From IMG/VR virus record IMGVR_UViG_2695420687_000003: DNA of 7,069 bases. One strand, written 5' to 3'. The position numbers and the translations under genes were made by a program. This DNA is from a virus. Lineage: Duplodnaviria; Heunggongvirae; Uroviricota; Caudoviricetes. Below the pieces are notes generated by a model that was given only the letters and a program-made list of their open reading frames with translations, was not told the origin of the DNA and searched no databases. Positions 1 to 2,979 of this stretch are shown in pieces (within the stretch, counting starts at the first letter, position 1; each line of letters begins with the position of its first letter).

Positions 1-2979
1 GACCTGGGTCGCCTCCAGCATGCCCTTAATCGTACAGTTCTGGTTAATCGTGACATTGTTGAGCGTTCCTGAGTTCGCATTCACACTGCCACTGATATCC
101 GCATTTTTAGCGGTCAGCCTTCCGTCTGGTGTCAGGGAAAATACCGGAGGACTGCCACCGCTGGTAATGGTGGGGGCCGTCAGGCGCTTCAGGAACACGT
201 CGTTCATGAATATCTGGTTGCCCTGCGCCACAAACATCGGCGTTTCATTCCCGTTTGCCGGGTCAATAAATGCGATACGGTTAGCGGCAACCAGAAACTG
301 ACTCAGTTTGCCTTCCTCCGTGTCCTCCATGCTGAGGCCAATACCCGCGACATAATGTTTGCCGTCTTTGGTCTGCTCAATTTTGACAGCCCACATGGCA
401 TTCCACTTATCGTTGGCGTCCTTCCACTCTTTCGAAAACTCCTCCAGTTTGCTGGCGTTATCCTCCGTCAGCTCGACTTTTTCCAGCAGCTCCTTGCCGA
501 GATGGGATTCGGTTATCTGGCCTTTGAAAAAATCCAGGTAACCTTCCGCATCATCGCTCGCCTGACCGACAGCCTCCACGAATGCCGAGTTGCCAACGGT
601 GTTCACACTGCGGATATAAAAGTAATAATCATGGCCCGGTTTGATATTGATACTGGCGGCTATCCAGTACATCCCCGTGCCAAGATAGCGCGCGCTGGTT
701 TCAACCTGCCGGATATCGGCAATCCGCTTTTCCGAGAACCAGAACTCAAACTGTACCGTCGGGTCATAAACCGCAAGATGCGGCGTGGCGGTTATCTGAA
801 AATAGCCCGGCGTCAGCTCAATCCGCGACGGTGCTGCCGGTGCGGAAATCAGGAACGATACCGACGCCGGGTCGCCCTGCTGTCCCCACGCATTTACCGC
901 CCGGACTGTCAGCCTGTAGTTCCCCAGCGCCAGTTGCCTGAAACGATATTCGGTTTCCGTCGTCCGGGCCGTGCTGACCAGCCGCTCACTGCCGTCATCC
1001 GCTGCCACGGTCAGGCGAAGCATAAAGCTCACCCCCTTCACCACCTTCGGCGTGTCCCAGCGCGCCAGCACCTGATATTCCCCGCTGTCTGCTGAGACTT
1101 CGGCGGTCAGGTGCTGCACCGCTGGCGGCGTGACACCATTCACCGTACCGCTCTGGTCGCCGTCAAAGTGCGCCCCGTTATCCACGATGGCTTCTTTTTC
1201 CGGTACATGCTGCACGGCGGTGATGGCATACGTGCCGTCGTCGTTCTCACGGATACTCACGCAGCGGAACAGGCGCTGGCGCAGCGTCGGCAGCTTCAGC
1301 CCCCACACGCTGTATTCAGCAACGCCGTCAGGAACACGGCTCACTTTCACCTTCACGCCGTCGGTGACGGACTGAACCTCCACGCTGACCGGATTGCCAC
1401 TTCCGTCAACCAGGCTTATCAGCGTGGTACCGGAGGATGGCAGAGTGATTTCACGGTCGAGCGTCAGCGTCCGGGTCTGGCTGTTTACCGCCAGCACGCG
1501 CCCGCCGATGCTGATACCGGCATAGTCATCATCGCAGATTTCAATGACATCGCCCGGTACATGGCGAAGCCCTTCAGCACCCACGCTGAAATCCACGGTC
1601 TGCGTCTCCAGCAGTTCCGTTTTAATCAGCCACAGCCCGGCGCGGTGTGCCTGCCCCCGGCTGGTACAGCCAAAGGCATCCATCTTCGTGACATTACGAC
1701 CGTAACGGGCAATGGCCTGCGTATCTTCAACAAGCTCTGTCGCCGTCTCCCAGCCGTTGTTCGGGTCAATCCAGTTCACCTCAACGGCATTATGGCGGTC
1801 CTTCAGGGCGCTGAAGCTGTAGCGGAACGGCGCGCCATCATCCGGCATCACCACATTACTGCGGTTATAGGTCCACACCTTATCTGATGGTCGGTCCTGC
1901 ACGAACGTCAGCGTCTGCCCGTTCCATACCGGCATACAGCGCATCGCCGAGCAGAAATCACTGAGCACATCCCACGCCTTGCGCTGTGTGCTCAGGTACG
2001 CATTACAGGTGATGCGCGGCTCCGTGCCGCCAAAGCCGTCCGGCACTGACTGGTCGCAGTACTGGCCGATGACATACAACGCCCATTTGTCCACATCCGC
2101 CGCACCAAGACGTTTTCCCATGCCGTAGCGCGGATGGGTCAGCATATCCCACAGACACCAGGCCGGGTTGTTGCTGTATGCCGGTTTAAACGTTCCGTCC
2201 CAGATACCGCTGTATTGCCGCGTCTGCGGGTTATAATTCGACGGCACCTGCAGAATACGCCCGCGCAGATGATAATTACGGCTCACCTGCTGGCTGCCGA
2301 ACTGCTCCGAGTCCACCTGCACGCCGAACAGTGCCGTGTTCGGGTAGCACTGTTTCACATCGATAATTTCGGTGTATGACGACCAGAGCGTTTTGTTCTG
2401 CAGCTGGTCTGTGGTGCTGTCCGGCGTCATCCTGCGCATCCGGATACTGAACGGGCGCGGCGGCAGGTTATCCACCACCACCGAGGCCAGATACTGCGAG
2501 GTGGTTTTGCCCTTAATGGTGATGTCTTTTTCCGTCACCCAGCCACCGTTACGCTGTATCTGAACCAGCAGGCGGACTTCCGACGGATCCCGGTCCCCCT
2601 TTGAAGTAGTTTCCACCAGTGCCTGCACACCGAAGGTAAAGCGCAGACGGTCGATGTTTGCAGACGTGATGGTCCGGGTAATCGGTGTGTCATATTTCAC
2701 TTCCGTCCCCAGCACCGTTTCTGAACCAGAGGATTCAAACCCCTCCGGCGGTGTCTGCTCCTGCTCACCGGCACGGAACACCACCGTGACACCGGAGATA
2801 TTGGTATTCCCCTCACTGTCCAGCACCGGCGTACTGTTCAGCAGCACACTTTTTAATCCGTCCACCGGACCTTCAATCGGCCCTTCACTGATGGCGTCTA
2901 TCACGCTCAGCAGCTGGGATGATTTCAGGTTGTCCTTCGCTTCGCGCGGGGTATGCCCCTTACTGCTGCCTTTACCCAT
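1..2979 (-). CDS. J: Central tail fibre / host specificity protein (lambda J-like); 5' partial in window: start codon at 2977-2979, first 993 codons present, C-terminal receptor-binding part lies beyond position 1
   Basis: Minus-strand translation from ATG at 2977-2979 begins [37 protein letters not shown], matching the lambda gpJ N-terminus as I recall it. GGAG Shine-Dalgarno 8 nt upstream. Frame stays open to position 1 (2979 nt = 993 codons), and the last codons read ...[60 protein letters not shown]..., again J-like. Not listed in the ORF track, presumably because its stop codon lies outside the window. The large plus-strand ORFs across 20..3013 are its antisense shadows. Confidence 0.9.

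Follow-up and report, generated by a model that had tools for sequence, protein, structure and literature searches.

The DNA analysed here is a stretch of 7,069 nt (the window), held in IMG/VR as the caudoviricete record IMGVR_UViG_2695420687_000003, which carries on its minus strand the tail genes H-M-L-K-I-J of a lambdoid prophage next to a short piece of bacterial chromosome. Our subject is gene J, which encodes the tip attachment protein and central tail fibre. Its codons 1–993 occupy positions 1..2979 (minus strand; assigned from translation, BLASTP and Pfam), and its frame is still open where the window ends. The window is the exact reverse complement (positions 1–7069) of the entire 7069-bp draft contig CDRK01001341.1 from assembly GCA_000936005.1. 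Both of its ends are thus assembly breaks and not arbitrary cuts and, because the window is the complete contig, the record holds no sequence to the left of position 1.

Open reading frames and Pfam matches place J after H-M-L-K-I, the gene order also found in phages lambda and 434. The translated product contains, in this order, the domains FNIII-A_GpJ, Phage-tail_3, Ig_J, Ig_J_second and Phage_Tail_Tip (E-values between 1e-33 and 1e-43). The domain order, the gap-free collinearity with lambda J in the same length register, and the shared H-M-L-K-I-J synteny identify the window gene as a member of the lambda gpJ family. As set out below, positions 1–70 are very probably the start of a phage-434-type host-range module joined to a lambda-like J body, with 144 further 434-type codons beyond the contig edge and OmpC as the receptor.

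The edge of J compared with lambda and phage 434

Window J was compared with lambda J (NC_001416, 15505-18903; NP_040600.1) by BLASTP. The two proteins align without gaps and share 951 of the 993 visible residues (95.8%), in agreement with a sequence-only reading of this DNA, which had described the visible codons as tracking lambda gpJ closely. The same reading had noted that substitutions become dense in the last ~16 codons, judging by a lambda sequence that it quoted for comparison. Checked against the J gene of NC_001416, the quoted sequence is exact, since lambda J reads ...NVTIAENCTINGTLRAEKI, then V, over these final positions. The clustering is also real: of the 42 amino-acid differences, 8 fall in the last 16 codons versus 34 in the first 977 (Fisher P = 5e-8). 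Elsewhere in J, a 16-residue window holds at most about 5 differences, and when the 42 differences were placed at random 20,000 times, no such window ever contained 8 (permutation P < 5e-5).

At the nucleotide level, the divergence becomes dense from J nt 2910, which corresponds to window position 70. Positions 1–70 contain 23 differences from lambda (33%), compared with 131 in the remaining 2909 nt (4.5%). The interval of positions 1–60 that had been proposed for the diverged segment is adequate as a location, although the true start lies at about position 70 in nucleotides and at codon 974 in amino acids; within J residues 974–993, nine positions differ from lambda. In a megablast search of the whole window against phage genomes, the alignments with lambda and its laboratory derivatives end at window position 12, and those with phage 434, lambda h434 imm21 and several others reach position 1.

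Phage 434 provides the closer match. Its J protein (UMO75286.1, OL657226, 1137 aa) is identical to window J at 969 of 993 residues (97.6%), again without gaps; the 24 substitutions are spread over the body of J, and the final 33 residues are the same in both. A four-way DNA alignment reveals no nucleotide difference from 434 over window positions 1–118, and identity to 434 over the final 330 nt of the J frame is 98.8%. The segment in front of the receptor-binding domain (1..70, minus strand; J codons about 970–993), in which 23 of 70 nt depart from lambda, is therefore of the 434 type, with 0 of 70 departing from 434. Window J contains the type-specific segment that precedes the receptor-binding domain in the 434-type (h434) module, and the corresponding lambda-type (LamB) segment, ...SNVTIAENCTINGTLRAEKI, was not found in it.

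Because the last 118 nt are identical to 434, the window edge is the first part of the 434-type C-terminal module and not as an unknown variant. On this identity, the divergent edge of J is assigned to the start of a host-range module of the phage 434 type. The J gene of 434, like that of lambda h434, switches away from lambda at the same position as window J. Beyond residue 993, the J proteins of lambda and 434 share only about 35% identity.

A cluster of substitutions could in principle also arise by ordinary point divergence from lambda with no exchange of modules, and the remainder of J does differ from lambda at 4.5% of its nucleotides. Against this, the rate at the edge is sevenfold this background, the Fisher and permutation tests given above both detect the clustering, the segment matches 434 exactly, and the identical segment occurs on unrelated J backbones in other genomes (see below). 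Plain point divergence was accordingly rejected, and we regard its probability as negligible.

The position of the switch agrees with the known limits of the gpJ domains. In window J, Pfam places the end of Phage_Tail_Tip (PF09327) at residue 972 and does not find Ig_GpJ_C. The latter domain (PF12421), which binds the receptor, starts at residue 1001 of the lambda and 434 proteins, and the window ends at residue 993. The divergence thus lies between the end of one domain at 972 and the start of the next at 1001, consistent with the earlier description of an edge that approaches the receptor-binding region. As that description also held, the receptor determinant itself falls outside the window, which includes no part of PF12421. 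Protein Data Bank (PDB) entry 8jvm, a J fragment covering about residues 830–995, likewise places a domain limit near residue 995.

Structural work on gpJ describes an alpha-helical shaft followed by a beta-sheet prism, which forms the central straight fibre, and an Ig-like receptor-binding domain (Ge & Wang, PMC11101478). The lowest layers of the beta-prism re-bond once LamB is bound (PMC11101478). Residues 974–993 of window J would correspond to these lowest prism layers and would travel with the receptor-binding domain.

Directly upstream of the diverged segment is a conserved linker block (64..117, minus strand; J residues about 955–972). This block is invariant in the window, lambda and 434 and is common to all J types: with a 35-nt anchor from within the block, J genes of the lambda, 434, A8-like and further types were recovered from IMG/VR. 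The block is the likely crossover site. Lambda residue 964, described as the "last stretch of identity" and used as the junction for building gpJ chimeras (PMC11338833), is located 87 nt from the window edge, within the conserved block at 64–117. The switch of J from lambda-like to 434-like is a long-known and common module swap, and its junction has already been described.

We propose the following arrangement. The J protein builds the tail-tip hub and the central fibre, with its last ~135 residues forming the Ig-like receptor-binding domain. The lambda-like body of window J would have been joined to the 434-type module at the conserved linker, around residues 955–972. The 20 to 25 residues before the domain, at the bottom of the beta-prism fibre, would be exchanged together with it as a single cassette. 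Most likely, J of the source genome would continue for 144 more codons and end in a 434-type domain, RGDFVKAVSKAFPKK...KKAASGISIR.

Edge types and receptor-binding domains in other genomes

The continuation of J was predicted from genomes that carry the same edge. When IMG/VR was scanned for exact matches to the final 60 nt of the J frame, at least 120 contigs were found to carry them. The counts that follow refer to the matches listed, which are mostly related E. coli prophages, so that they do not represent independent events. A stop codon is reached in 118 continuations; 117 of these begin with RGDFVKAVSKAF, and most of the continuations run for the full 144 residues of the 434 type. The sole exception contains N and cannot be read. 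When the pattern was extended to 133 nt of the edge, including single-nucleotide polymorphisms specific to the window, no match was found in IMG/VR.

The contigs that share the 60-nt edge have two kinds of J body. In about 40 of them the body is lambda-like, with 94–97% nucleotide identity to the window over 2979 nt. About 75 carry a second J body, with about 80% identity to the window over the last 397 nt but full identity over the last 87–118 nt. Because the same edge and the same domain occur on two different bodies, the 434-type module has moved between J backbones. The C-terminus of J had been named as a point of mosaic exchange from the sequence alone, and this claim is borne out by the presence of the 60-nt edge on two backbones and by the co-variation of edge type with domain type.

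This co-variation was followed with the anchor from the linker block, which retrieves J genes regardless of their type. The edge type of the window leads to the 434-type domain in 92 of 92 J genes. The edge IAENCTINGTLRAEKI leads to the lambda-type domain. The edge INENCQIKGKLSANQI is followed either by an A8-like domain (139 aa) or by a third family, ...FPRDSRAPE (138 aa), and this third family is also found after the edge INENCRVLGKLSANQI. The edge of J is thus a good, though not perfect, tag for the domain family, with no exceptions for the window's type among the matches listed.

The junctions of INENCQIKGKLSANQI with its two families are found at J residues about 978–1010 (L131–L215). They suggest that crossovers also take place in a second zone, within ~15 residues past the edge, as seen with INENCQIKGKLSANQI.

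In two of the contigs retrieved with the 60-nt edge (of L011–L130), J reads on in frame, 29 residues past the edge, into a side-tail-fibre-like sequence of 711 residues. These fusions look like the result of a deletion that joined J to stf.

Since INENCQIKGKLSANQI pairs with two domain families, crossovers just inside the domain do occur, and a crossover just past the edge is possible in principle. Such an event right after the window edge would take J into a domain that is neither of the lambda nor of the 434 type. The genes that carry the window's edge type argue otherwise, as none of the 92 listed changes family and 117 of the 118 continuations listed for the 60-nt edge are of the 434 type, the N-containing one being the exception. 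The E. albertii J genes that we retrieved, described below, are likewise all of the 434 type. A change of domain family directly after the edge therefore seems quite improbable, and a continuation into the 434-type domain is favored.

J proteins of the length found in 434 (1137 aa) are abundant and form clusters of thousands of members (P0017, 8237 members; P0018, 4993 members). In 434 itself, J is followed by an Ail/Lom-family gene, stf and tfa, and then by genes for type III secretion system (T3SS) effectors.

A truncated prophage in Escherichia albertii

The end of the window opposite to J consists of bacterial chromosome. Positions 6806..7069 (minus strand) comprise the cobS–ldtA spacer and the last 28 codons of cobS (6981–7069), assigned from identity to the E. 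albertii type strain NBRC 107761, in which the upstream open reading frame is CobS-like. The 293 nt at positions 6777–7069 are 98.3% identical to this strain, in a region that runs from upstream of ldtA into the gene. In contrast, the cobT–ldtA region of E. coli shows just 83–89% identity to the flank, and over part of the region only. A scan of genome contigs with a pattern from the flank returned the E. albertii type strain as the sole match; an earlier scan of genome contigs with a 30-nt flank pattern had returned no match. In addition, the exact gpI protein carries the name of E. albertii in NCBI. These matches identify the host of the prophage remnant as Escherichia albertii.

The spacer between cobS and ldtA contains a run of ten G (positions 6905–6914), whereas the run at this place in the E. 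albertii type strain is shorter and interrupted. The ten G may reflect a sequencing error or a tract prone to slippage.

Alignments with the cobT–ldtA region of E. coli and with E. albertii NBRC 107761 show that positions 6777..6805 (minus strand) hold the start of ldtA (~10 codons), which is joined, out of frame, to a fragment of the tape-measure gene H. The fragment (5352..6776, minus strand; Pfam Tape_meas_lam_C) comprises the C-terminal 474 of ~859 codons and has no start of its own. The deletion junction between ldtA and H is at window positions 6777/6776, with a microhomology of 1 nt, and the breakpoint in H was located by alignment with the intact H genes of two related contigs (L003 and L006). 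Directly beyond the ldtA'::'H junction lies the 3' end of cobS. The identical junction is present in a second assembly (L004, CCBU01001275.1; 99.98% identity). H is intact in the related contigs L003, L006 and L007, and L003 also has head genes.

Downstream of H, the genes M, L, K and I and the visible portion of J are intact according to Pfam. Gene M (5026..5355, minus strand) encodes the 109-aa minor tail protein M (Phage_min_tail), and gene L (4328..5026, minus strand) the 232-aa minor tail protein L (Phage_tail_L). Gene K (3579..4322, minus strand) encodes a 247-aa tail tip protein with JAB and NlpC/P60 domains (Prok-JAB, NLPC_P60). Gene I (3040..3681, minus strand) encodes the 213-aa tail tip assembly protein, identified from Lambda_tail_I and from alignment with the gpI proteins of lambda and 434.

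An intact, inducible lambdoid prophage has a full tape-measure gene and head genes upstream of its tail genes. In the window, H is cut and head genes are absent on the H side, where the cobS flank follows directly. The element ldtA'::'H-M-L-K-I-J is a truncated prophage remnant, and its locus alone is unable to make tails, heads or virions. It differs in this respect from 434, a viable phage of E. coli. As the remnant forms no virions of its own, a "receptor specificity of this phage" is only notional.

The gpI protein of the remnant has 213 residues, compared with 223 in lambda and 434, owing to a 10-residue deletion in its hydrophobic middle, and residues 69–137 diverge from lambda and 434 alike. 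This divergent patch is a second mosaic patch among the tail-tip genes.

No Rfam family matched anywhere in the 7,069-nt window, and promoter-like and terminator-like sites occur in it at the frequency expected by chance. An open reading frame on the plus strand (20..301) is antisense to a strongly conserved coding region and was taken as a by-product of the mechanical list of open reading frames. An exact look-up of the partial J protein (993 residues) in the protein collection gave no match.

The contig break, the predicted receptor and their meaning

The continuation of J was also sought in relatives of the element. An exact-protein look-up with gpI and gpK identified six sister contigs (L003, L004, L006, L007, L220 and L221). 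The 3' end of J was not found for the lineage of the window in these contigs, which all break inside J or earlier, or diverge. All near-identical E. albertii draft contigs that were found end within J or before it, and the breaks in E. albertii drafts fall at differing points of the gene. The contig L004 is 99.98% identical to the window from the chromosomal flank to J nt 945, after which it carries (locus 5357–7405) genes with the conjugation domains TrbI and TraP. This break within J reflects either chimeric assembly or a genuine rearrangement of the gene.

A protein search found two J proteins from E. albertii, P0030 and P0032 (1139 aa), each encoded twice in the complete chromosome CP117590.1. 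This chromosome contains four lambdoid prophages (L216–L219) with near-identical J genes, which are 94% identical to window J at the nucleotide level. All four genes end in the 434-type domain and extend 435 nt past the position equivalent to the window edge. Their edge differs from the INQN... of the window, and their prophages keep the head genes, unlike the window element with its truncated H. Directly after J, three of the four prophages have stf and tfa genes (a side-fibre gene of 389 aa and a chaperone gene of 89 aa) and then several genes for NleG effectors. In two of the four, a gene for Cu/Zn superoxide dismutase lies between I and J.

A 3' module of J that is present in several copies, as in the four prophages of CP117590.1, is a sufficient reason for an assembler to stop at the J edge. 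The likeliest cause of the contig end at position 1 would thus be repeat collapse, in which short reads could not resolve the multi-copy 434-type 3' end of J.

The contig end could instead mark an insertion sequence (IS) or another rearrangement that interrupts J at or just past position 1, leaving a remnant without a receptor-binding domain; in that case the multi-copy sequence behind the break would be the IS itself. Draft contigs often end at IS copies, the element has already suffered a deletion at the opposite end, and the assembly L004 leaves J at nt 945 to enter the plasmid genes TrbI and TraP. However, the edge contains no IS-like sequence, and its last 118 nt are purely 434-type J. 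A single complete E. albertii genome holds four copies of J that share this 3' end, which is enough to account for the break, and E. albertii drafts break at differing points within J. An interruption of J is therefore unlikely, though it is the most plausible of the alternatives considered here, and we favor a J gene that continues into its 434-type domain.

The C-terminal part of J sets the host specificity, and in lambda its last 249 residues suffice for binding to LamB (PMC3509688). Phage 434, and lambda carrying the J gene of 434, adsorb to OmpC, the receptor of 434, rather than to LamB (PMC11101478, PMC3509688). The 434-type domain would direct adsorption to the same porin, and by analogy with 434 the receptor of window J is predicted to be OmpC, in contrast to the LamB bound by lambda J. 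The sequence-only reading had suggested a receptor specificity other than that of lambda; the identity of the edge to 434 J, the 434-type character of all readable continuations, and the use of OmpC by 434 all agree with it.

The same principle underlies the engineered and natural variants of gpJ known as A8 and 1A2 (Brodel et al., Nature 2024), in which the C-terminus is swapped at the conserved block near lambda residue 964, with retargeting to OmpC. The structure of one such variant is available as PDB 9wca ('A8 gpJ 713'). A8 has the edge INENCQIKGKLSANQI and a domain that starts with EGDIVKTVSKSFPRT, and it belongs to a family other than the 434 type found at the window edge.

Several points weigh against this account of J in the source genome. 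The receptor-binding domain is outside both the window and the contig, so its presence and integrity are only predicted from linkage, and the element is already degraded at its H end. About 8% of the sampled 434-type tails, among the matches listed, are frameshifted, truncated or fused to a side-fibre gene, and the edge INENCQIKGKLSANQI pairs with two families of receptor-binding domain. Finally, it is for 434 infecting E. coli K-12 that OmpC has been documented as the receptor, and not for this allele on E. albertii.

With no virions of its own, the remnant would matter only as a donor of its J module to other lambdoid phages through homologous recombination. A more far-reaching possibility, to which we give little credence and slightly less than to a change of domain family after the edge, is that the remnant is kept as a standing donor of J cassettes for resident lambdoid prophages, or that its J ends in an undescribed domain at the break. 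If so, the locus would represent natural host-range switching caught in a host other than E. coli.

The importance of the finding beyond annotation is small. Since this copy of J lies in a dead remnant, it should not be credited with a phenotype unless the remainder of the genome is at hand. Knowledge of the exchange of J between lambda and 434 dates from the classical h434 hybrids, and lambda particles are now retargeted to OmpC through this very junction. Because the 3' module of J is multi-copy, short-read assemblies of E. albertii and of prophage-rich E. coli tend to break inside this gene. As the ~20 residues before the receptor-binding domain tag the domain family, a J gene truncated in this way can still be typed, here as 434-like, with OmpC as its inferred receptor.

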